Below, in pieces: positions 14,253 to 64,000 of a DNA stretch of 64,000 bases (its first letter is position 1; the number at the start of each line of letters is the position of its first letter). The DNA is from Leucoraja erinacea (Eukaryota): positions 32,612,001 to 32,676,000 of the forward strand of contig NC_073399.1 in assembly GCF_028641065.1 (NCBI RefSeq), read 5' to 3'. The notes under the pieces were generated by a model, which was not told the origin of the DNA, ran no database searches, and was given only the letters and a program-made list of their open reading frames with translations. The position numbers and the translations under genes were made by a program.

Positions 14253-17200
14253 AAACATAGAAACATAGAAACATAGGTGCAGGAGTAGGCCATTCGGCCC
14301 TTCGAGCCTGCACCGCCATTTAATATGATCATGGCTGATCAACCAACTCAGTATCCCGTACCTGCCATCTCTCCAAACCCTCTGATCCCCTTGGCCACAA
14401 GGGCCACATCTAACTCCCTCTTAAATATAGCCAATGAACTGGCCTCAACTACCCTCTGTGGCAGAGAGTTCCAGAGATTCACCACTCTCTGTGTGAAAAA
14501 AGTTCTCCTCATCTCGGTTTTAAAGGATTTCCCCCTTATCCTTAAGCTGTGACCCCTTGTTCTGGACTTCCCCAACATCGGGAACAATCTTCCTGCATCT
14601 AGCCTGTCCAACCCCTTAAGAATTTTGTAAGTTTCTATAAGATCCCCTCTCAATCTCCTAAATTCTAGAGAGTATAAACCAAGTCTATCCAGTCTTTCTT
14701 CATAAGACAGTCCTGACATCTCAGGATTCAGTCTGGTGAACCTTCTCTGCACTCCCTCTATGGCTATAATGTCCTTCCTCAGATTTGGAGATCAAAACTG
14801 CACGCAATACTCCAGGTGTGGTCTCACCAAGACCCTGTACAACTGCAGTAGAACCTCCCTGCTCCTATACTCAAATCCTCTTGCTATGAAAGCCAACATA
14901 CCATTCGCTTTCTTTACTGCCTGCTGCACCTGCATGCCTACCTTCAATGACTGGTGTACCATGACACCCAGGTCTCGCTGCATCTACCCCTTTCCCAATC
15001 GGCCACCGTTTAGATAATAATCTGCTTTCCCGTTTTTGCCACCAAAATGGATAACCTCACATTTATCCACATTAAACTGCATCTGCCAAACATTTGCCCA
15101 CTCACCCAGCCTATCCAAGTCACCTTGCAGTCTCCTAGCATCCTCCTCACACCTAACACTGCCCCCCAGCTTAGTGTCATCCGCAAACTTGGAGATATTG
15201 CCGTCAATTCCCTCATCCAGATCATTAATATATATTGTAAATAGCTGGGGTCCCAGTACTGAGCCTTGCGGTACCCCACTAGTCACTGCCTGCCATTGTG
15301 AAAAGGACCCGTTTACTCCTACTCTTTGCTTCCTGTTTGCCAGCCAGTTCTCTATCCACATCAATACTGAACCCCCAATGCCATGTGCTTTAAGTTTGTA
15401 TACTAATCTTTTATGTGGGACCTTGTCGAAAGCCTTCTGGAAGTCCAGATACACCACATCCACTGGTTCTCCCCTATCCACGCTACTAGTTACATCCTCG
15501 AAAAATTCTATAAGATTCGTCAGACATGATTTACCTTTCGTAAATCCATGCTGACTTTGTCCAATGATTTCACCACTTTCCAAATGTGCTGCTATCCCAT
15601 CTTTAATAACTGACTCTAGCAGTTTCCCCACTACCGATGTTAGACTAACTGGTCTGTAATTCCCCGTTTTCTCTCTCCCTCCCTTCTTAAAAAGTGGGAT
15701 TACGTTTGCTACCCGCCAATACTCAGGAACTACTCCAGAATCTAAAGAGTTTTGAAAGATTATTACTAATGCATCCACTATTTCTGGAGCTACTTCCTTA
15801 AGTACTCTGGGATGCAGCCTATCTGGCCCTGGGGATTTATCGGCCTTTAATCCATTCAATTTACCCAACACCACTTCCCGACTAACCTGGATTTCACTCA
15901 ATTCCTCCACCTCCTTTGACCCGCAGGCCCCTGCTATTTCCGGCAGATCATTTATGTCTTCCTTAGTGAAGACGGAACCAAAGTAGTTATTCAATTGGTC
16001 CGCCATATCCTGGTTCCCCATGATCAACTCACCTGTTTCTGACTGCAAGGGACCTACATTTGTTTTAACTAATCTCTTTCTTTTCACATATCTATAAAAA
16101 CGTTTGCAGTCAGTTTTTATGTTCCCTGCCAGTTTTCTTTCATAATCCATTTTTCCTTTCCTAATTAAGCCCTTCGTCCTCCTCTGCTGGTCTCTGAATT
16201 TCTCCCAGTCCTCCGGTATGCTGCTTTTTCTGACTAGTTTGTACGCATCATCCTTTGCTTTGATACTATCCCTGATTTCCCTTGTTATCCATGGATGCAC
16301 TACCTTCCCTGATTTATTCTTTTGCCAAACTGGGATGAACAATTTTTGTAGTTCATCCATGCAGTCTTTAAATGCCTTCCATTGCATATCCACCGTCAAC
16401 CCTTTTAGAATTAATTGCCAGTCAATCTTGGCCAATTCACGTCTCATACCCTCAAAGTTACCTTTCTTTAAGTTCAAAACCATTGTTTCTGAATTAACAA
16501 TGTCACTCTCCATCCTAATGAAGAATTCAACCATATTATGGTCACTCTTGCCCAAGGGGCCACGCACAACAAGACTACTAACTAACCCTTCCTCATTACT
16601 CAATACCCAGTCTAAAATAGCCAGCTCTCTCGTTGGTTCCTCTACATGTTGATTTAGATAACTATCCCACATACATTCCAAGAAATCCTCTTCCTCAGCA
16701 CCCCTGCCAGTTTGATGCACCCAATCTATATGTAGATTGAAGTCACCCATTATAACTGCTTTGCCTTTGTCGCAAGCATTTCTAATTTCCTGTTTGATAC
16801 CATCTCCAACTTCACTACTACTGTTAGGTGGCCTGTACACAACACCCACCAGCGTTTTCTGCCCCTTATTGTTTCGCAGCTCTACCCATACCGATTCCAC
16901 ATCCTCCAAACTAATGTCCTTCCTTTCCATTGCGTTAATCTCCTCTCTAACCAGCAACACTATCCCACCTCCTTTTCCTTTCTCTCTATCCCTCCTGAAT
17001 ATTGAATATCCCTGGATGCTCAGCTCCCAGCCTTGGTCACCCTGGAGCCATGTCTCCGTGATCCCAACTATATCATAATCATTAATAGCTATCTGCACGT
17101 TCAACTCATCCACCTTATTACGAATACTCCTTGCATTGAGACACAAAGCCTTCAGGCTTGTTTTTACAACGCTCTTACCCCTTATACAATTATGTTGAAA

Positions 17201-17605
17201 AGTGGCCCTTTTTGATTTTTGCCCTGGTTTTGTCTGCCTGCCACTTTTACTTTTCACCTTGCTACCTATTGCTTCTACCTTCATTTTACACCCCCTGCCC
17301 CTCTGCTCTTGTACCCATCCCCCTGCCACATTAGTTTAAATCCTCCCCGACAGCAGTAGCAAACACACACCCCCCAAGGACATTGGTTCCATTCCAGCCC
17401 AGGTGCAGACCGTCCTGTTTGTACTGGTCCCACCTCCCCCAGAACTGGTTCCAATGCCCTAAAAATTTGAATCCCTCCCCCTTGCACCATTTTTCAAGCC
17501 ACGTATTCATCTGCAATATCCTCCTATTTCTGCTCTGACTGGCCCGTGGTACTGGTAGTAATCCAGAGATTATTACCTTTGAGGTCCTACTTTTAAGCCT
17601 GTCCC
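14253..17605 (-). mobile_element. Young CR1 LINE: ORF1 esterase 3' part plus complete ORF2 (APE endonuclease + RT) disabled by only two nonsense codons
   Basis: ORFs 14984-17329, 14792-14983 and 14348-14752 are in one frame, separated by TAG (GKG*MQRDLG) and TGA (VQF*SPN). SKFADDTK and [10 protein letters not shown] motifs; (CATAGAAA)n tail. Confidence 0.97.
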
Positions 17606-29300: not shown

Positions 29301-29664
29301 TACTCTAGAGTGGAGCTAGGGCAAACAACCTCATGGCCTACAGCAACTAATGGTAGCCACTGAGCCTTTAAATCACACACTTTCTCCAGGATTAATAGTA
29401 TTGTTCCGTTACAATAAAAGTGTAAGTTTTATACACTAATTTTTGGCCCAGAAGAAAACATTCATAGAACATAGAACATAGAACACAGAACATAGAAGCA
29501 CAGGAATTAGCCCTTTGGCCTACAGCGTTTGTGCCAAACACAATGGCAAGTTTAACTAATCTCATCTGCCTGTGATCCACATTCCACCATTCCTTGCACT
29601 TCCATCTTCGTCTTCTTTCGTGTGGCATGCACAGCTTAAAGTTGTAGGACATGATGAGTAATGG

Positions 29665-30720
29665 TGGATGGCTGTTTGTTAGGTTGGAGGCGGTGACTAG
29701 TGGGGTGCCACAGGGATCTGTGTTGGGTCCACTGTTGTTTGTCGTGTACATCAATGATCTGGATGATGGTGTGGTAAATTGGATTAGTAAGTATGCAGAT
29801 GATACTAAGATAGGTGGTGTTGTGGATAATGAAGTAGATTTTCAAAGTCTACAGAGAGATTTAGGCCATTTGGAAGAGTGGGCTGAAAGATGGCAGATGG
29901 AGTTTAATGCTGATAAGTGTGAGGTGCTACATCTTGGCAGGACAAATCAAAATAGGACGTACATGGTAAATGGTAGTGATTTGAGGAATGCAGTTGAACA
30001 GAGGGATCTAGGAATAACTGTGCACAGTTCCCTGAAGGTCGAATCTCATGTAGTTAGGGTGGTAAAGAAAGCTTTTGGTGTGCTGGCCTTTATAAATCAG
30101 AGCATTGAGTATAGGAGTTGGGATGTAATGTTAAAATTGTACAAGGCATTGGTGAGACCAAGTCTGGAGTATGGTGTACAATTTTGGTCGCCTAATTATA
30201 GGAAGGATGTCAACAAAATAGAGAGAGTACAGAGGAGATTTACTAGAATGTTGCCTGGGTTTCATCAACTAAGTTACAGAGAAAGGTTGAACAAGTTAGG
30301 TCTTTATTCTTTGGAGTGCAGAAGGTTAAGGGGGGACTTGATAGAGGTCTTTAAAATGATGAGAGGGATAGACAGAGTTGACGTGGATAAGCTTTTCCCA
30401 TTGAGAGTAGGGAAGATTCAAACAAGAGGACATGACTTCAGAATTAAGGGACAGAAGTTTAGGGGTAACATGAGGGGGAACTTCTTTACTCAGAGAGTGG
30501 TGGCTGTGTGGAATGAGCTTCCAGTGGAAGTGGTGGAGGAAGGTTCGATTTTATCATTTAAAAATAAATTGGGTAGGTATATGGACAGGAAAGGATTGGA
30601 GGGTTATGGTCTGAGTGCAGGTAGATGGGACTAGGGGAGAATAAGTGTTCGGCACGGACTAGAAGGGCCGAGATGGCCTGTTTTCGTGCTATAATTGTTA
30701 TATGGTTATATGGTTATAGG
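29665..30720 (+). mobile_element. CR1 LINE, second family: RT C-terminal half with uninterrupted frame
   Basis: 327-aa [38 protein letters not shown]; (TATGGT)-type tail. Further copies at about 48760-49210 and 59762-60220. Confidence 0.95.
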
Positions 30721-39699: not shown

Positions 39700-40650
39700 A
39701 TTCAGATTCAGATCCAGATTCAACTTTATTGGCATTGTGCAGTGTACAGTACAGAGACAACAAAATGCAGTTTGCATCTCCCTAGAAGAGTGAGCAATAA
39801 ATAAATCTATTTACATGCAAACAGTCATAGTATTTTTTTCCTGGTGGGAGGAGTGTCCTGGGGGGGGGGGGGGGGGTGATTGGCAGTCACTGAGGTACAG
39901 TGTTGAGTAGTGTAACAGCCGCAGGGAAGAACCTGTTCCTGGACCTGCTGGTCCAGCAACGGAGAGACCAGTAGCGCCTCCCGGATGGTAGGAGGGTAAA
40001 CAGTCATGGTTGGGGTGAGAGCAGTCCTTGGCGATGCTGAGCGCCCTTCGCAGACAACGCTTGCTTTGGACAGACTCAATGGAGGGGAGCGAGGAACCGG
40101 TGATGCATTGGGCAATTTTCACCACCCTCTGCAGTGCTTTCCGGTCGGAGACAGAGCAGTTGCCATACCATACTGTGATACAGTTGGTAAGGATGCTCTC
40201 GATGGTGCAGCGGTAGAAGTTCACCAGAATCTGAGGAGCCAGATGGACCTTCTTCAGTCTCCTCAGGAAGAAGAGACGCTGGTGAGCCTTCTTGACAAGA
40301 GTTGAGGTATTGTGGGTCCAAGAGAGGTCATCGGAGATGTTGACCCCCAGGAACCTGAAGCTGGAAACACGTTCCACCTCCGTCCCGTTGATGTGGATGG
40401 GGGTGTGCGTGCCGCCCCTAGACTTCCTGAAGTCTACAATGAGCTCCTTGGTCTTCTTGGAGTTAAGGGCCAGGTTGTTGTCAGCGCACCATGCTGCTAG
40501 GAGCTGGACCTCCTCCCTATAGGCCGACTCATCGTTGTTGCTGATCAGGCCAATCACCGTTGTATCATCTGCATACTTGATGATGGTGTTAGTCCCATGT
40601 ACAGGTGTGCAGTCGTAAGTGAAGAGGGAGTAGAGGAGGGGGGTGAGGAG
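39700..40650 (-). mobile_element. Rex1/Babar RT 3' half
   Basis: PLLYSLFTYDC..IIKYADDTTVIG..QRLFFLRRLKK..NFYRCTIESIL; (TCTGAA)n tail. Confidence 0.93.
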
Positions 40651-40690
40651 TGAGGAGCGCAGGAGGAATAAATTGAACAAGAGGAGTTTC

Positions 40691-41325
40691 TGTGATGTTT
40701 GGTGGATTGTTGGGGTGGGAGGACCCGTTGTTCCACCCGTGACTCAGCTGGCACTGCACAGGACAAAGGGAGATGTTTTGTATATAGTTCTCTCATGTAT
40801 GTGTGTCTGAATGTGCAGCCATTATCAGTTGTCTTGCTGCCAGCATTGAATAAAGCATTAGACTTCTATTGCAAATTGAAGGCTGTTAAGTTTTTTGCCG
40901 ACCTAGAAAACAAACATGAAAATGGTGTCAGAAGTGGGATACTTCAGATTCCATCCAAAGACTCAGATAAGAGCCTATTTTTTGATTGAAAAAAAACTAA
41001 CCACCATGTCTCGGCAATTTGATCGTTTTGATCCCGAGCGAAAAAGGTGGACGTATTTAATGCGCGCTGAGTTTTATTTTGAAAGTATGGCAATTACGAC
41101 TGACCAGAGGAAGAAGGCTCTCTTGTGTTCATCAATATCTCCAGAAAGGTTTGCACTGCATCAAAATGTATTTCCAGAAGAAGTAACTGAAGTTTCATTT
41201 GCTGAAATCACAATGGCTTTGCAGCTGCATTTCGAAGAAAGTCGAAATTTCCTAACAGTTCGCCTTGATTTCTACAGGACGGTGTAATAGAAAGGGCAAT
41301 CCATCACCGAATATCAAACCTGCGC
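40691..41325 (+). mobile_element. Gypsy LTR retrotransposon 5' fragment: LTR, tRNA-Leu PBS and gag
   Basis: TG-started LTR-like segment with AATAAA (about 40849); PBS TGGTGTCAGAAGTGGGAT (40923-40940). Gag-like FDRFDPE..W..FYFE..KKALL..SFAEI..LHF..RLDFY...GQSITEY. Confidence 0.8.
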
Positions 41326-44110: not shown

Positions 44111-44349
44111 ATTGGCCCTTTGTCCAGCGGCCCCATCACAAACACTGGTGTAGCATTAGCCTACAGATGTTGTACAAGACTTTAAGTTTATGACAGTGTT
44201 TATTGTTGAAGGAACTATAACTGCCATTGTACCAATATATAATGTCACAAAACAGTCTGCAGAGAGGCAAGAGATGCATCCAGTGAAGTAGTAGCACTTG
44301 GTTGCACTGTCTGAGAGGCAGAAGTGGTTCTTATTAATGTCAGTATACC

Positions 44350-45089
44350 TTGCTGATGACACTGTGGTGGTGGGCCTGATCTCAGACAATGATGAGAGGG
44401 CCTACCGGGAGGAGGTGGCTGATCTAGCACTCTGGTGCCAGGATAACAGCCTCCTCTTGAACATCAAAAAAACGAAGGAGCTGATCATGGACTTTAGGAG
44501 GGCACATCATCCGAGGACGTACACTCCATTGAGTATAAATGGGGATCCTGTGGATAGGGTGAACTGTTTTAAATATCTGGGAGTCCTCATCTCTGAGGAT
44601 ATGACATGGTCATCACACGCCTCAGCAATGGTGAGTAAGGCAAGGCAGCGCCTTTACCACCTCAGGCAATTGAGGAAATTCAGAGTGTCTCGGAGGATCC
44701 TCCAGTGCTTCTACGCAGCGGCGGTGGAAAGCATCTTGTCCGGGAACATTACCATCTGGTTCGGGAATTGCTCTGCCAAGGACAAGAAGGCTCTGCGGAG
44801 AGTAGTGCGTTCGGCCGAACGCACTATGGGAACTTCACTCACCCCCCTGCAGGAACTATACAACAGGAGGTGCAACTCCAGAGCAAATAAAATCATGAGA
44901 GACCTCTTCCACCCCCTGCAACAGACTTGGCCAGCCGCTACGGTCAGGCAAACGCCTCCGTTGCCATGCAGTGAGAACAGAGAGGTTGAGAAGGAGTTTC
45001 TTCCCAGAGGCAATTCGGACTGTAAACGCCATTCTCACCAGGGACTAACTTTACAGAACGTTTTTCCTTCTATTATTTATTATGTAAAA
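44350..45089 (+). mobile_element. Rex1/Babar RT 3' part flanked by a 115-bp direct repeat
   Basis: ADDTVVVGLIS..KTKELIMDFRR..FKYLGV..RQRLYHLRQLRKF. 44222-44336 equals 45090-45204. Same family 3' ends at about 26070-26390 (+) and 56268-56590 (-). Confidence 0.92.
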
Positions 45090-45224
45090 TGCCATTGTAC
45101 CAATATATAATGTCACAAAACAGTCTGCAGAGAGGCAAGAGATGCATCCAGTGAAGTAGTAGCACTTGGTTGCACTGTCTGAGAGGCAGAAGTGGTTCTT
45201 ATTACTTGACTTGTATCTCCAAAG

Positions 45225-46098: not shown

Positions 46099-47915
46099 AG
46101 CCCCTGCCTCACTCAGGTGACCTCCACCACGAGTTCTGGCGATCTTGCCCGCGACCCATAGTTGCGGGAAGGTTGCCACGAGGTTGTAGGAGGTCTTCGT
46201 CACTCTCCTTCATGGTCGAGAGTGGTCTCCGCATGGTCGAGGCTTCAGCTAAGTCGCGGCGTATTTTATCAATATGTTAAAAATTGACCGCGACTAAAAA
46301 ATAGGTCGCCGTGGGAAAAATCGATACTTTTTTAGTCGTAGGTCTAGTTGAAGTCAATCGTAGTAAGTCGTGATGCTAGTCGTAGGTAGTTGAAGGTAAT
46401 AGCTCTGGGGTGACAAAAAGTCAGTAGAAAAAAAAGGTACTGTAAACAGCAGAACGTCACCTCTGTCACTCCAGGGCATGTTCATTCATAGCTGGAGAGT
46501 TTTGTTGGAGAGGAGAATTGTGTTTCAGAGATGGCACACAAAAGGCAGCAGCGCAGGGGAATGGCACAACCCTAAAAAAACCTGCCATGCGGGTATTGCC
46601 CACCCAGGAGGTGAACCCACAGGAGGTGATAGTGCAGGAGGAGGTAGCCCTGCATGAGAGACCCCTGGAGGAGGAGACCAGGGTGTTAGTATATGTCCCC
46701 ACCACCACCCCATCCTTCACTGCCTCATTTGAAGGCATCAAAGCAGCCCTTTCTCCTGTGTCTGACACAGCATCAGAGGCAGATGCCCCATTGGTGGTGA
46801 GGGAGGGCTGGAGAAAGGTTATGCCCTACACCTTCACCAGGCAGCAGGAGGAGGACCTTGAGGAATGGTTCCAGCAGAATGCCATCCTGTACGATAAGGA
46901 AAATGAGGGGTACAGGGACAGGGACAAGGATGGCACGCTTGCCATCCACTGCCCCACATGTGTGCCTAAAAAGTTCCATCTTTTGTCAAAGCCCAGCGCC
47001 ACTCTCTTCCAGTCATCTGGTTTACTGGGACAGTCCATCACATAGAAACATAGAAAATAGGTGCAGGAGTAGGCCATTCGGCCCTTCGAGCCTGCACCGC
47101 CATGGCTGATCATCCAACTCAGTATCCCGTACCTGCCTTCTCTCCATACCCCCTGATCCCTTTAGCAACAAGGGCCACATCTAGCTCCCTCTTAAACATA
47201 GACAATGAACTGGCCTCAACTACCTTCTGTGGCAGAGAATTCCACAGATTCACCACTCTCTGTGTAAAAAATGATTTTCTCATCTCGGACCTACAAGACT
47301 TCCCTCTTATCCTTAAACTTTGACCCCACCACCTCCATTCACCCATTGAGACCTCTTCTTGTAATTCCTTTTCACCCTTGCTCTTCCCCTTCTGCCTTTC
47401 TTAAAAGGCTGTTGAAGCAAAAGGGCTACTGCAAACAGCAGTAGTTGTATGTTTTACTAACATCCTCCAAACTAGTTCCTTCCTTGCTTGCACGGTTCAG
47501 AATGATTAAAACAAAACCTGGGAGGCATTTTTTAGTGAGAAAAATTGCAGACATGACATAATTTTATCAGGTGATCATTTGAGCTGTAGACACTTGCCAC
47601 TGGTCGTTGTTGGTTGTCGGTGTGGTCCTCTGAGGTCAAAGGGGGTTGTGCTCATTCACGGACCAATTTGCCAGAGACCATCCTCGAGTAAAACGTACAT
47701 GGTTGAAGCCAGTCTTCAACATAGTCGTAGGAGGTCGAAAGAGGTCAAAGGAGGACTTCTTTGCAGTCCAGGGAGGTCTTCAACATAGTTGTAGGAGGTC
47801 GTACACATACTCAAGAAAGGTCGTAGGTCGTAGGTCACCGAAACCTTGATTTTTTTTTTAGTCGCTTAAGGTCGCCAGAACTCGTGGTGGATGTCTCCCA
47901 AGTAGGACAGGCCCT
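46099..47915. mobile_element. PIF/Harbinger deletion derivative with Myb/MADF-like ORF (+) and DDE transposase remnant (-); CR1 end nested at about 47040-47325
   Basis: TTA TSD (46096-98, 47916-18) within the host repeat gagTTActccag; ~48-bp imperfect TIRs sharing tccaccacgagttctggcga. FTRQQEEDLEEWFQQNAILYDKENEGYRD on plus; DWKRVALGFDKRWNF/HTCGAVDGK on minus. Confidence 0.87.
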
Positions 47916-60474: not shown

Positions 60475-60928
60475 TGTGGATTCTACATCGGTGAGACTAG
60501 AACATCATGTAGATTATATACATGATGTTCTGTTCCAACACCAGCCATCAAAAAAACACACCCAATTTATACCACAGCAAAACACAAAGTGCTGGAGTAA
60601 CTCAGCAGATCAGGCAGCATCTGTGGAGACTATGGAGAGGCAGCGTTTCGATTCTTAAGACTGATCAAGAGCTCCCGACCCAAAACGTCTCCTGTCCATT
60701 CCCTCCACAGATGCTGCCTGACCCGCTGATTTATTCCAGCATCTTGTGTTTTGCTCAAGATTTCAGCATTCCATCTTACTCCATAAAAGTTTACGTCACA
60801 GAAACAAAACAGTGAAGAAAATGATTAAGAACTTTGCAGATTCCATCAGGTCCTATCCTACTTTGATGGTGCATTTTACCTTTCATAGATCATTGAATCA
60901 AATGTTTAAGGCTCATTTTACTTGACCA

Positions 60929-61030
60929 CTAACGAGCCATGCTTTGCGAACGTACCAAGTTCATATCTTCATACACTGAATTTGGAACTCGTTTTCGTTG
61001 AGATTCGGCCTCTTGATAGTGATTTTTCCC
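60929..61030 (-). CDS. Cytoplasmic (probably terminal) exon of the CD7-like receptor: GKNHYQEAESQRKRVPNSVYEDMNLVRSQSMAR*
   Basis: Acceptor ttgtcttcatttttag|GGG in phase 0, compatible with the TM exon. It contains VYEDM (YxxM PI3K p85 SH2 motif, the CD7 tail signature); TAG at 60931-60929. Not in the ORF track (<60 aa). Confidence 0.75.
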   Translation of the reverse strand, partial: GKNHYQEAESQRKRVPNSVYEDMNLVRSQSMAR

Positions 61031-61517
61031 CTAAAAATGAAGACAATTTTTAAACGTTATTTTTTCTCTAAATTTACAACTTTCAACACAGACATTCTTG
61101 CACTCTTATTAATCCTAATTAAGCATAATGCTCTTTGGAATCAATATTGGTTGGCATTATTTGCGCAATGATAGGCCATCTTCTGCCAGATTGTCTATTC
61201 ATATCTCGCTTCTTGCAAAGTTGCAAGAGAGAATTCTATCAAAGAAGGACGGAACTGCAGATGCTGGTTTAAACCGAAGCTGGAGTAACTCAACGGTCAT
61301 GCAGCAGCTCTGGGGAAAAAGAACAGGTGATGTTTTGGGTTGAGACCCTTCTTCAGCCTGAGAGCCTTCAGAATTCTAGCAAATGTCTTTACAGTCATCG
61401 TGGCATACAGCATGGAAACAGGCCTTTCAGCCCAACTCATCCATGCTAACACCAAGTGTCCCATGTAAGCGAGTCCCATTTGCCCACATTTGGCCATATC
61501 CCATTAAACCTTCCTTT

Positions 61518-62118
61518 CATAGAAACATAGAAACATAGAAATTAGGTGCAGGAGTAGGCCATTCGGCCTTTCGAGCCTGCACCGCCATTCAATATGATCA
61601 TGGCTGATCATCAACTCAGTATCCCGTACCTGCCTTCTCTCCATACCCTCTGATCCCCTTGGCCACAAGGGCCACATCTAACTCCCTCTTAAATACAGCC
61701 AATGAACTGTGTGGCCTCAACTACCTTCTGTGGCGGAGAGTTCCAGAGATTCACCACTCTCTGTGTGAAAAAAGTTCTCCTCATTTCCTTGTACCTGTCC
61801 AAGTGCTTTATAATGCTGTTATTAAATCTGCCTCAACTACCTCCTCTGGCATCTCATTCCATACACCCACTGAGTGAAAAAGTTGTCCCTCACGTTCCTT
61901 TACATCTTGTCCCCTCGCCTTAAACCCCCCGGTTCCTCAGGGTATAAAAACTCTGCATTTATCCTATCAATTCCCCTAATGAATTTTGGAAAGGTGAATA
62001 GTGGACATACATGCTGTTAATACCCCTAACAAGTCATAGAAACATAGAAAATAGGTGCAGGAGGAGGCCATTCGGCCCTTCGAGCCAGCACCGCCATTCA
62101 TTGTGATCATGGCTGATC
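61518..62118 (-). mobile_element. Two short CR1 3' ends in the CD7-like intron (about 61518-61785 and 62035-62118)
   Basis: (CATAGAAA)n tails and standard 3' UTR. Confidence 0.85.
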
Positions 62119-63169
62119 GTAGTGGGTCAGCTTCCTGAATTAGAGACTCTATATAAGTAATCCCATGGTGTTGTTGGGCAGAGAAGGGTCCAAGGTTTAC
62201 AGCTAGCAATGAAGCAGGAATAGCACTAAATCCCCAAATCAGGGTGGATTGTAACTTGGAAGGGAAGAATGCAGAACAGTGCAGCACAGGAATATTCACC
62301 CCACAATGTCCATGCCAAATATGATGCCAAGTTCAACTAATTTCCTCTGCCAGCACATTTAATTTAGTTCAGTTTAGTTTTGTTAATTGTCACATGTACC
62401 GAGGTCCAGTGAAAAGCTTTTTGCCACGTGCTAGCCAGCCAGGGTAAAGACTACACATGATTACAATTGATCAGTGATCCATATTCCTCCACTCCCTGCC
62501 TATCCACATTCCTATGTTAAAGGCTATTAAAGGCCACTATCATATCTGCCTCCGACATCACGCTTGACAACACATTCTAAGCACTCACCCCACTCTGTGT
62601 AAAACATGTGCCTCGCACATCTCCTTTAAGCTTTGCCACCCTCGCCTTTAAACTGTACTCACTCGTCTTTGACATTTCCACCCTGGGAATAAAGGTTCTG
62701 ACTGTCAGACTGTCTATCTAAGCCTCTCATAATTGTATGTACTCCCAGCAGTTCTCCCCTCAACACCCAAAGTTCCAGAAAAAAACAGTCCAAGTTTGCC
62801 CATCCTCCCTTTATATCTAAAACCATCAAATGCATCAATTGCTGGTCGGTGTTTCGAGTCAGGACACTTCGCCCAGGCTGCCTATTTCCTTCCACAGATG
62901 CTGCCTGACTGGCTGAGTTCCTCCAGCTGTTCTCCTTTCCATCCATCAGATTCCAGCATCTGCAGTCTGTTGCGCCTCAGAGCACCCACTATCTCTTGCC
63001 CACTCCCATGTACACCCATAGTGGCATTTAAGAGGCATTCAGATGGGCATATAGACATGCAGGGATATGGATCACATGCTGACAGAGACAGGATCGAACC
63101 CGGGTCTCTGGCGCTGTGAGGCAGTGGCTCTATCTGCTGCGCCAGAGACCCGGGTTTGTGTAATGTATT

Positions 63170-63711
63170 CAAAAAAAAAACACATTACACCAATTCTTAA
63201 ATCCTTATATTGGCTCCCTGTATGTCAGAGAATTGATTTCAAAATCCTGCTGCTCACCTATAAATCACTACATGGTTTAGGACCAAAGTATATCACTGAC
63301 ATGCTTCCACTATATAAGCCTTCTAGACCGCTAAGATCTTCTGAAACCAATCTGTTAGTGATTCCCAGAGTAAATACAAAACATGGGAAAGCAGGATTTA
63401 GTTACTATGCAACAAATAGCTGGAATAAACTTCCTGAAGATTTAAGACTTGCCCCAACTTTGACCACTTTTAAAACAAGACTGAAAACTTTTATGTTTAC
63501 TTTAGCTTTCAGCTAAATCTTAACTACATTGCACTTTTAACTTTTGCACTTTTTATAATGCATTTTTAATTTTGCTTTTCTTTTCTTTTAATTCTTCTAT
63601 TTTATTTCAATTTATTATTTCATTTTATTGTATGACATGTTTTTATGTGAAGCACTTTGAGTCTGCCTCGTGTATGAAATGTGCTATATATATATAAAGT
63701 TGCCTTGCCTT
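63170..63711 (+). mobile_element. L2 LINE 3' fragment (second, AT-rich family) inserted in an HE1 SINE
   Basis: HITPILKSLYWLPVCQRIDFKILLLTYKSLHGLGPKYI..WNKLP..FKTRLKTFMF; tail tgtgaagcactttgag..aaatgtgctata..(TTGCC)n. Confidence 0.9.
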
Positions 63712-63819
63712 GTGCCACAGTGCTGCCCTCAAATCAATTTCTTCAATCAGTTTAATAATCTTGTTATGTTTTTTATATTTCATGGCATAATATTCGATGA
63801 ATATAAATTAGAAACTTAC

Positions 63820-63950
63820 ATGTCGAATTAACAGAACCAGTGCACAAAGGAAGCTAGCAACGGTAAGAATAATCATTGCAATCATCAGCGGATCCTTAAA
63901 AACAGCAAATGTGCACTTTTCTTCTGTGGCACAGTTATGCTTGGTTTCGT
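63820..63950 (-). CDS. Stalk + transmembrane exon of a CD7-like type I membrane immune receptor: (D)ETKHNCATEEKCTFAVFKDPLMIAMIILTVASFLCALVLLIRH
   Basis: Minus-strand acceptor ttttatcttctcag|AC and donor CAT|gtaagt. The 131-nt exon is phase 1 to phase 0 and encodes a ~22-aa hydrophobic stretch followed by RH. Sequence is unique (non-repeat). Confidence 0.85.
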
Positions 63951-64000
63951 CTGAGAAGATAAAATATAAAAACATATACGTATGTCTTAATTTGTCCATT

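Follow-up and report, generated by a model that had tools for sequence, protein, structure and literature searches.

A four-exon receptor gene

The stretch analysed here (the window) comprises 64 kb of the genome of the little skate, Leucoraja erinacea (G000), i.e. positions C23:32612001-32676000 of contig C23 (NC_073399.1); coordinates prefixed with C23 are genome positions, and all others are positions in the window. Its upper end contains the last two exons of a minus-strand gene that very likely encodes the skate orthologue of the receptor CD7. Exon 3 (63820..63950, 131 nt) lies between an acceptor ending in TCTCAG and a GTAAGT donor, runs from phase 1 to phase 0, and encodes a stalk with two cysteines (Cys141 and Cys147) and a transmembrane (TM) helix at approximately residues 156-176 (63826..63888), which was located by hydropathy (best 19-residue mean, 2.97) and by an AlphaFold2 helix at residues 155-190. 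The 3' end of intron 2 (63951..64000) continues past the window edge. Intron 3 (61031..63819) has GT-AG ends and consists mostly of repeats. The coding part of exon 4 (60929..61030, 102 nt) follows an acceptor ending in TTTTAG, encodes a 33-residue cytoplasmic tail, and terminates in a TAG stop codon; the tail contains a YEDM motif (Tyr198-Met201, 60962..60973), which is a YxxM site, and a membrane-proximal tyrosine, Tyr183 (61016..61018). Translated together, the two exons give a two-cysteine stalk, a hydrophobic helix, and a tail with VYEDM. Neither exon has any repeat cover (0) by self-BLAST, which masked 59% of the 463 kb around them. An earlier interpretation of this DNA from its letters alone (the sequence-only reading) had proposed two unique exons with canonical splice sites, an in-frame join, and exactly this stalk, helix, and tail; its coordinates proved exact, and the translation agrees with RefSeq. 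An AATAAA at position 60735 is not claimed as the poly(A) signal because it sits inside a repeat.

The remainder of the gene lies outside the window. An IgV exon (C23:32681739-32682083, minus strand, 345 nt, phase 1/1; Pfam V-set, E 2.2e-8) and a leader exon (C23:32687904-32687961, minus strand, 58 nt) were found 5.8 and 12 kb beyond the TM exon, respectively. The sequence-only reading had anticipated a phase-1 IgV exon and a signal-peptide exon at higher coordinates and would have been contradicted by a non-Ig ectodomain; the ectodomain is an IgV domain. Leader, IgV, stalk/TM, and tail exons join into a 636-nt frame specifying 211 amino acids, with 0 differences from RefSeq XP_055510220.1 (P0004), which carries the automatic name 'M1-specific T cell receptor beta chain-like' in the little skate. 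The gene is therefore mislabelled in RefSeq rather than hidden, and the earlier description of it as hidden holds for the open reading frame (ORF) track only. In addition, the full protein, with five differences (P0001), is read from a Logan contig of 1188 nt that covers all three junctions. A chance join of the exons is excluded because the frame reproduces the RefSeq protein and the Logan contig spans all of the junctions; the evidence for the 63820 -> 61030 junction consists of P0001 and P0004, not of aligned reads. V-exon contigs from two of four sequencing runs break off at the boundaries of the V exon, and the loose ends were matched by eye to the neighbouring exons (the leader exon in runs X15 and X16, and the stalk exon in X16). 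Both runs are guessed to be RNA, and their slight differences from the genome indicate relatives or other individuals. Runs X2 and X9 gave nothing on the V exon, X1, X5, X7, and X10 covered repeats only and gave no junction, and a run search with a repeat-rich stretch listed no RNA; these results are uninformative on expression. In the AlphaFold2 model, residues 22-134 form a V-type sandwich (block predicted local distance difference test [pLDDT], 82-92), and a helix begins at residue 155. These data indicate that the locus is an intact, spliced, four-exon gene for a type I membrane receptor with a single IgV domain, a stalk, a TM helix, and a short YxxM tail, which is the plan of CD7.

Relationship to CD7 and other Ig receptors

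A phmmer search over 1.84 billion representatives returned 85 matches with rays and sharks on top. Ten further matches were looked up: eight are named CD7 (aardvark, bat, turtle, tody, caecilian, lungfish, Xenopus, and bilby), and two are unnamed chondrostean proteins. The nearest bony-vertebrate matches are named CD7s, and two shark orthologue clusters (catshark and bamboo sharks) have been named CD7-like automatically. In the reverse direction, turtle CD7 ranked this V exon first of six matches in the skate genome (E 5.5e-10; next, 3.6e-6), and it was the sole match on C23. A profile of 19 non-chondrichthyan homologues scored the V exon at 87 bits, compared with at most 61 bits for the other skate V exons tested, and also detected the tail exon (E 0.002 within the region). 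By BLASTP, the V domains of eight named CD7s scored 42.0-62.8 bits, compared with no more than 41.2 bits for seven comparison V exons of the same genome (six of the CD28-family type and one other). A V-domain tree was built from 39 rows, comprising 11 V exons of the skate and 28 homologues selected from the match lists, with the other matches left out. Its eight chondrichthyan rows (84/83) fall inside a 20-row group containing all seven named CD7s (89/82), and six CD28-family rows are separated from this group by a 92/96 branch.

Motif conservation was counted in a 31-row alignment of 5 batoids, 3 sharks, and 23 bony vertebrates. Tyr198 and Met201 of YEDM are each kept in 30 rows. The C strand of the V domain reads G-x-x-[LFV]-x-[RK] and lacks the Trp, as in CD7, with Gly53 in 25 rows, Leu, Phe, or Val at position 56 in all 31, and Arg or Lys at position 58 in 30; position 68 is aromatic or His in 28. 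The short two-cysteine stalk noted earlier is present, and its cysteines are kept in most chondrichthyans. Tyr183, which had been singled out as an extra tyrosine, is also present but was rejected as a conserved signalling site because it is found in four of five batoids, none of three sharks, and 1 of 23 bony vertebrates and belongs to no YxxM, YxNx, or YxxL motif. In common with CD7 of mammals, and with the proteins so named in turtle, birds, amphibians, and lungfish, the skate protein has a Trp-less single IgV domain, a stalk, a TM helix, and a VYEDM tail. It differs in having 21-30% identity to the aligned bony-vertebrate rows and in its tail, which stops 10 residues past YEDM and has no RRNT, a stretch frequent in tetrapods. 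Models of the CD7 type in which two V domains stand in tandem were seen in a bird, a caecilian, a smelt, and two records without a name (P0013, P0014, P0015, P0023, and P0036), and two CD7-like gene models in one skate species (P0003 and P0005), located on contigs of equal length, suggest a local duplication.

Homology, reciprocal search, tree, and the UTS2R linkage described below agree in placing the gene with CD7 rather than with another family, as the sequence-only reading had proposed, and orthology with CD7 is well supported and very likely. Every CD7 feature examined is present except adjacency to CSNK1D. We regard it as highly probable that the two exons of the window are the last of an intact four-exon gene, which is spliced and specifies a 211-residue membrane protein with a single IgV domain, the skate CD7; this protein would likely act as an activating co-receptor on T or natural killer (NK)-like lymphocytes. 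Several observations weigh against this assignment. The tree supports are moderate and under the starred level, 13 of 36 inner branches are open, the named CD7s do not form a single clade (such a clade occurs in 12% of bootstrap trees), and the CD7 side of the 92/96 branch also takes in two nectin V rows. The BLASTP margin is thin (weakest CD7, 42.0 bits; best CD28H-type exon, 41.2 bits), the gene set was collected by similarity to the query, and the names in it are automatic labels. The candidates for CSNK1D and FASN lie 4.7-5 Mb away. The RefSeq model of the thorny skate (P0002) has His in place of the YEDM tyrosine and a shorter tail, reflecting either a loss of signalling or a model error. 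Finally, bony fish carry several CD7-like paralogues, some without YEDM, and one-to-one orthology with CD7 is accordingly not proven.

These bony-fish genes also favour the alternative that the skate gene is a CD7-family paralogue (co-orthologue) whose function has drifted, e.g. to a glycan or another ligand, with the B7-type neighbours described below linked to it by position only. The V domains of batoids are unlike those of sharks, with 43% identity and a new cysteine pair in batoids, and a sturgeon B7-type domain (see below) is nearer to another skate gene than to the neighbour on C23. However, the rank of this V exon in the turtle CD7 search, in which it was the best match genome-wide, and the retention of both the tail motif and the UTS2R linkage make a drifted paralogue improbable.

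A second alternative, which we judge very improbable, is that the gene belongs to the CD28/CTLA4/ICOS or CD28H/CD28X set and not to CD7, and binds B7 ligands in the manner of CD28. The two groups share the IgV-TM-tail plan and a YxxM site, which in CD28X is also YEDM according to the available text of Quiniou et al. 2024 (PMC11599192), from which our CD28-family motif definitions were taken. In addition, the C-strand Trp is missing as in the V exons of the CD28/CTLA4 cluster, Cys67 and Cys86 align with the extra C'-D cysteine pair of both of those exons, and the Atlas feature matches include ICOS and CTLA4-like clusters. The distribution of the pair argues against such membership: Cys67 is present in all five batoids but in none of the three sharks or 23 bony vertebrates, and Cys86 is present in five of five, one of three, and 2 of 23, respectively. 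The batoid Cys67-Cys86 pair may form a CD28-like disulfide that was retained, or it may have been gained in parallel. The skate protein has no PPP or EIP loop, no GxG, and no YxxxxT in the TM helix. The P-[P/L]-P loop before the G strand is absent from it and from seven other chondrichthyan V domains, and the CD28X loop YxCx6PPPx4/5GxG, absent here, is carried by an exon on contig C22. The CD28-family-type exons of the genome lie elsewhere, namely two PPP exons on C7, where the exons of the three-gene CD28/CTLA4/ICOS cluster are located, three EIPPP exons on C13 and C29, and the CD28X-type exon on C22. CD28X is moreover linked to pudp, sts, and anos1 in the accessible part of PMC11599192, in contrast to the UTS2R linkage found here. 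This locus was not among the matches listed for the ICOS V-set family in the genome, the counts of which are lower bounds. The gene is not among the nine CD28-family members in the available text of PMC11599192, and its accession and motif are absent from the text of nine supplementary files, in which sequences given as images would escape notice. Membership of the CD28 set is largely refuted.

The third alternative, that the exons are a T-cell receptor (TCR) beta-like or other antigen-receptor fragment, as in the RefSeq name, or a chance join, has next to no probability, and the spliced transcripts refute it. Searches of the PDB by single sequence and by fold do return TCR and antibody V domains first, but these matches are weak or reflect the generic V fold, the V exon includes the G strand and splices directly to the stalk/TM exon with no constant domain, and the best single-domain PDB match of the family profile is CD7 (12hp, E 1.7e-29; partly circular, since the profile includes mammalian CD7s). 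No CD7 or CD28 chain was among the matches listed by the single-sequence PDB search or by either fold search, and these searches do not discriminate.

Chromosomal neighbourhood and B7-type genes

A single-exon gene of the urotensin-2 receptor (UTS2R) family lies on the plus strand at C23:33000199-33001308 (family match E 3.7e-116; next family, 5.5e-42), and genes of the Ig ligand type lie between it and CD7. In mammals, CD7 and SECTM1 are on the same strand. The mammalian order is CD7, SECTM1, TEX19, and UTS2R, as given in the available text of PMC4603632. The skate order, with CD7 and the ligand-like genes on the minus strand and UTS2R on the plus strand, matches this arrangement.

The ligand-like gene nearest to CD7 (C23:32714786-32723182, minus strand) lies 27 kb upstream of the CD7 start and is represented by a cluster of six Logan proteins. 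It consists of a leader, an IgV domain, a CD80-like C2 domain (C2-set_2, E 4.3e-9), a TM helix, and a short tail, i.e. the organization of the B7 family. Its PDB matches include CD276 (best), butyrophilin, PD-L1, and CD80; however, a separate CD276-like gene is present on contig C36, and the automatic names of the V-C-TM gene disagree between skates (CD276-like in one and PD-L1/2-like in another). Farther from CD7, two related V exons (C23:32767942-32768277 and C23:32764646-32764975, minus strand), together with a TM-like exon on the same strand near C23:32758100, appear to form one V-V-TM gene spanning approximately C23:32758050-32768277. Both B7-type genes occupy the slot of mammalian SECTM1.

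Cys38 and Cys55 are invariant in SECTM1, which also has a GxYxWxLxGxQ motif, as described in the accessible part of PMC4603632; we read its GxYxW as an F strand in which Trp replaces the usual Cys. The neighbouring skate V exons have cysteines 16 residues apart at domain positions 6 and 22, compared with 6 and 23 in SECTM1 region A, and in the two far V exons the F strand has no Cys and its sequence is G-x-Y-x-aromatic. A SECTM1-like cysteine pattern is seen in both far V exons, and half of it in the V-C-TM gene, which differs from SECTM1 in having the CD80-like C2 domain and keeping the F-strand Cys. The xLxGxQ part is only partly matched in the skate neighbours, the comparison being one of published motif positions only, and no SECTM1 rows were among the PDB and Atlas matches listed. 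The B7-type neighbour that is predicted to bind CD7 (see below) may be anciently related to SECTM1, the CD7 ligand of mammals. Telling against such a relationship, the SECTM1-like cysteine pattern also occurs in one of the three other B7/butyrophilin-type V exons recovered. This exon (C8:17.37 Mb, L124) has an A-strand Cys and no F-strand Cys and is followed by two C2 exons.

Merged gene models of sturgeon (P0098, P0051, and P0097) combine a B7-type domain with a CD7-like gene lacking YEDM, one of them also including an FDXR-like part. Two of them suggest the same CD7/B7-type tandem, which would be a second CD7-like lineage with a B7-type neighbour. However, the sturgeon B7-type C domain scores 68.6 bits with the CD276-like gene that the skate carries on C36, compared with 34.7 bits with the C23 neighbour, and its orthology is not settled by the tree.

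Downstream of CD7, the next gene recognised is a septin (exons at 32.30-32.32 Mb), and a long exon at C23:32421943-32422650 (minus strand) is presumably the N-terminal exon of SEPT9. Domain matches along C23 comprise CYBC1-like (0.13 Mb), FDXR-like (22.2 Mb), FASN-like (27.7 Mb), casein kinase 1 (CK1)-like (27.96 Mb), SEC14L1-like (31.5 Mb), and septin-like (32.3 Mb) genes, names that we assume from the domains, together with the membership of these genes in human 17q25. CSNK1D is a neighbour of CD7 in mammals. The sequence-only reading had looked to it for synteny, and this expectation failed: the CK1 motif match taken as CSNK1D is on the same contig, near the FASN-like gene at 27.69 Mb, but 4.7 Mb away. 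We take its distance as a rearrangement, adjacency to CSNK1D not being a defining feature of CD7. No V or C2 exons were found by profile search in the 170 kb around the CK1 gene. Between 32.73 and 33.07 Mb, a crude scan for internal exons, in which Pfam was applied to 99 of 130 candidates, detected only reverse transcriptases and overlooked the single-exon UTS2R. A short minus-strand frame at C23:32844165-32844443 resembles the end of a retroviral envelope protein. No other host genes were recognised in the window when ORF translations were inspected by eye. Long frames resembling reverse transcriptases of long interspersed nuclear elements were seen at positions 14984-17335, 29648-30634, 39811-40743, and 44295-45110, and frames with an MADF-like stretch (46446-47045, minus strand) and a long terminal repeat gag-like stretch (40907-41287, plus strand) are presumably transposon relics.

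Predicted ligand pairing and proposed function

The V domain of CD7 and that of the V-C-TM gene, folded together without alignments, gave a complex score of 0.73, compared with 0.00 for the best of three controls; runs agreed in at least 96% of contacts, and the partner pLDDT was at least 87. Among eukaryotic proteins, 39 of 65 solved pairs that have no like complex reach the mark, as do 2 of 126 unrelated pairs. The predicted interface on CD7 comprises residues 52-55, 63-75, and 115-121 and includes the conserved Gly53 and position 68. Complexes of V domain with V domain are common among solved structures, and a pass may therefore reflect likeness to these. As a further point against the pairing, the controls were unrelated natural proteins and not Ig-matched; the score thus supports a plausible pairing and not specificity. 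The AlphaFold2 model of the neighbour's V domain is poor (pLDDT 54.6).

Under the model that we propose, the predicted ligand of skate CD7 is the B7-type V-C-TM protein encoded on the same strand 27 kb upstream, which the CD7 V domain would contact face to face by way of its C, C', C'', and FG parts. By analogy with mammalian CD7, ligand binding would lead to phosphorylation of Tyr198, and the phosphorylated YEDM would recruit PI3K p85; a putative disulfide-linked dimer could form through the stalk cysteines. The link of the CD7 YEDM to PI3K is reportedly due to Lee et al. in 1996. The tail has no Grb2-type YxN site, since the Asn is at Y+4. Mammalian CD7 has a role in T- and NK-cell activation (available text of PMC2193045), and SECTM1 is a CD7 ligand, with PI3K activation (accessible parts of PMC3769348 and PMC13223139). 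By the same analogy, the likely role of skate CD7 is that of an activating co-receptor on lymphocytes of the T or NK-like type.

A broader scenario can be drawn, for and against which we consider the odds even: the co-stimulatory pairing of CD7 with a linked B7-type ligand would date back to the first jawed vertebrates, CD7 would be a PPP-less sister of the CD28 family, and mammalian SECTM1 would be a truncated descendant of the B7-type genes retained by skates between CD7 and UTS2R, with the V-C-TM gene and the cysteine-shifted V exons as intermediate steps. Most worth testing is whether the CD7 ligand originated from B7 genes, and the B7-type neighbours make both the partner of CD7 outside placental mammals and the origin of SECTM1 testable. 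A skate CD7 with an intact YEDM tail would place the receptor at the origin of adaptive immunity and is a candidate T/NK marker for cartilaginous fish. In the available text of a 2026 survey of the human Ig superfamily (PMC13262535), CD7 is listed under 'mammals' with 0 conservation in Chondrichthyes; CD7 is not treated in that of the 2024 survey on CD28-family genes of sharks and skates (PMC11599192), and a 2015 paper describes SECTM1 as eutherian-specific and states, in its accessible part, that no CD7 phylogeny had been reported until then (PMC4603632). Judged by titles and abstract openings, none of the papers listed in our literature search, in which subscription papers were thinly covered, deals with chondrichthyan CD7. 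The gene itself is already modelled in databases, and its shark copies have been named CD7-like automatically, which limits the surprise. Elsewhere in the skate genome, two near-identical B7-type C2 exons on C13 (5.55 and 5.48 Mb; L129 and L130) are interleaved with two EIPPP (CD28H-type) V exons within 100 kb, an arrangement that is possibly another linked receptor-ligand cluster.

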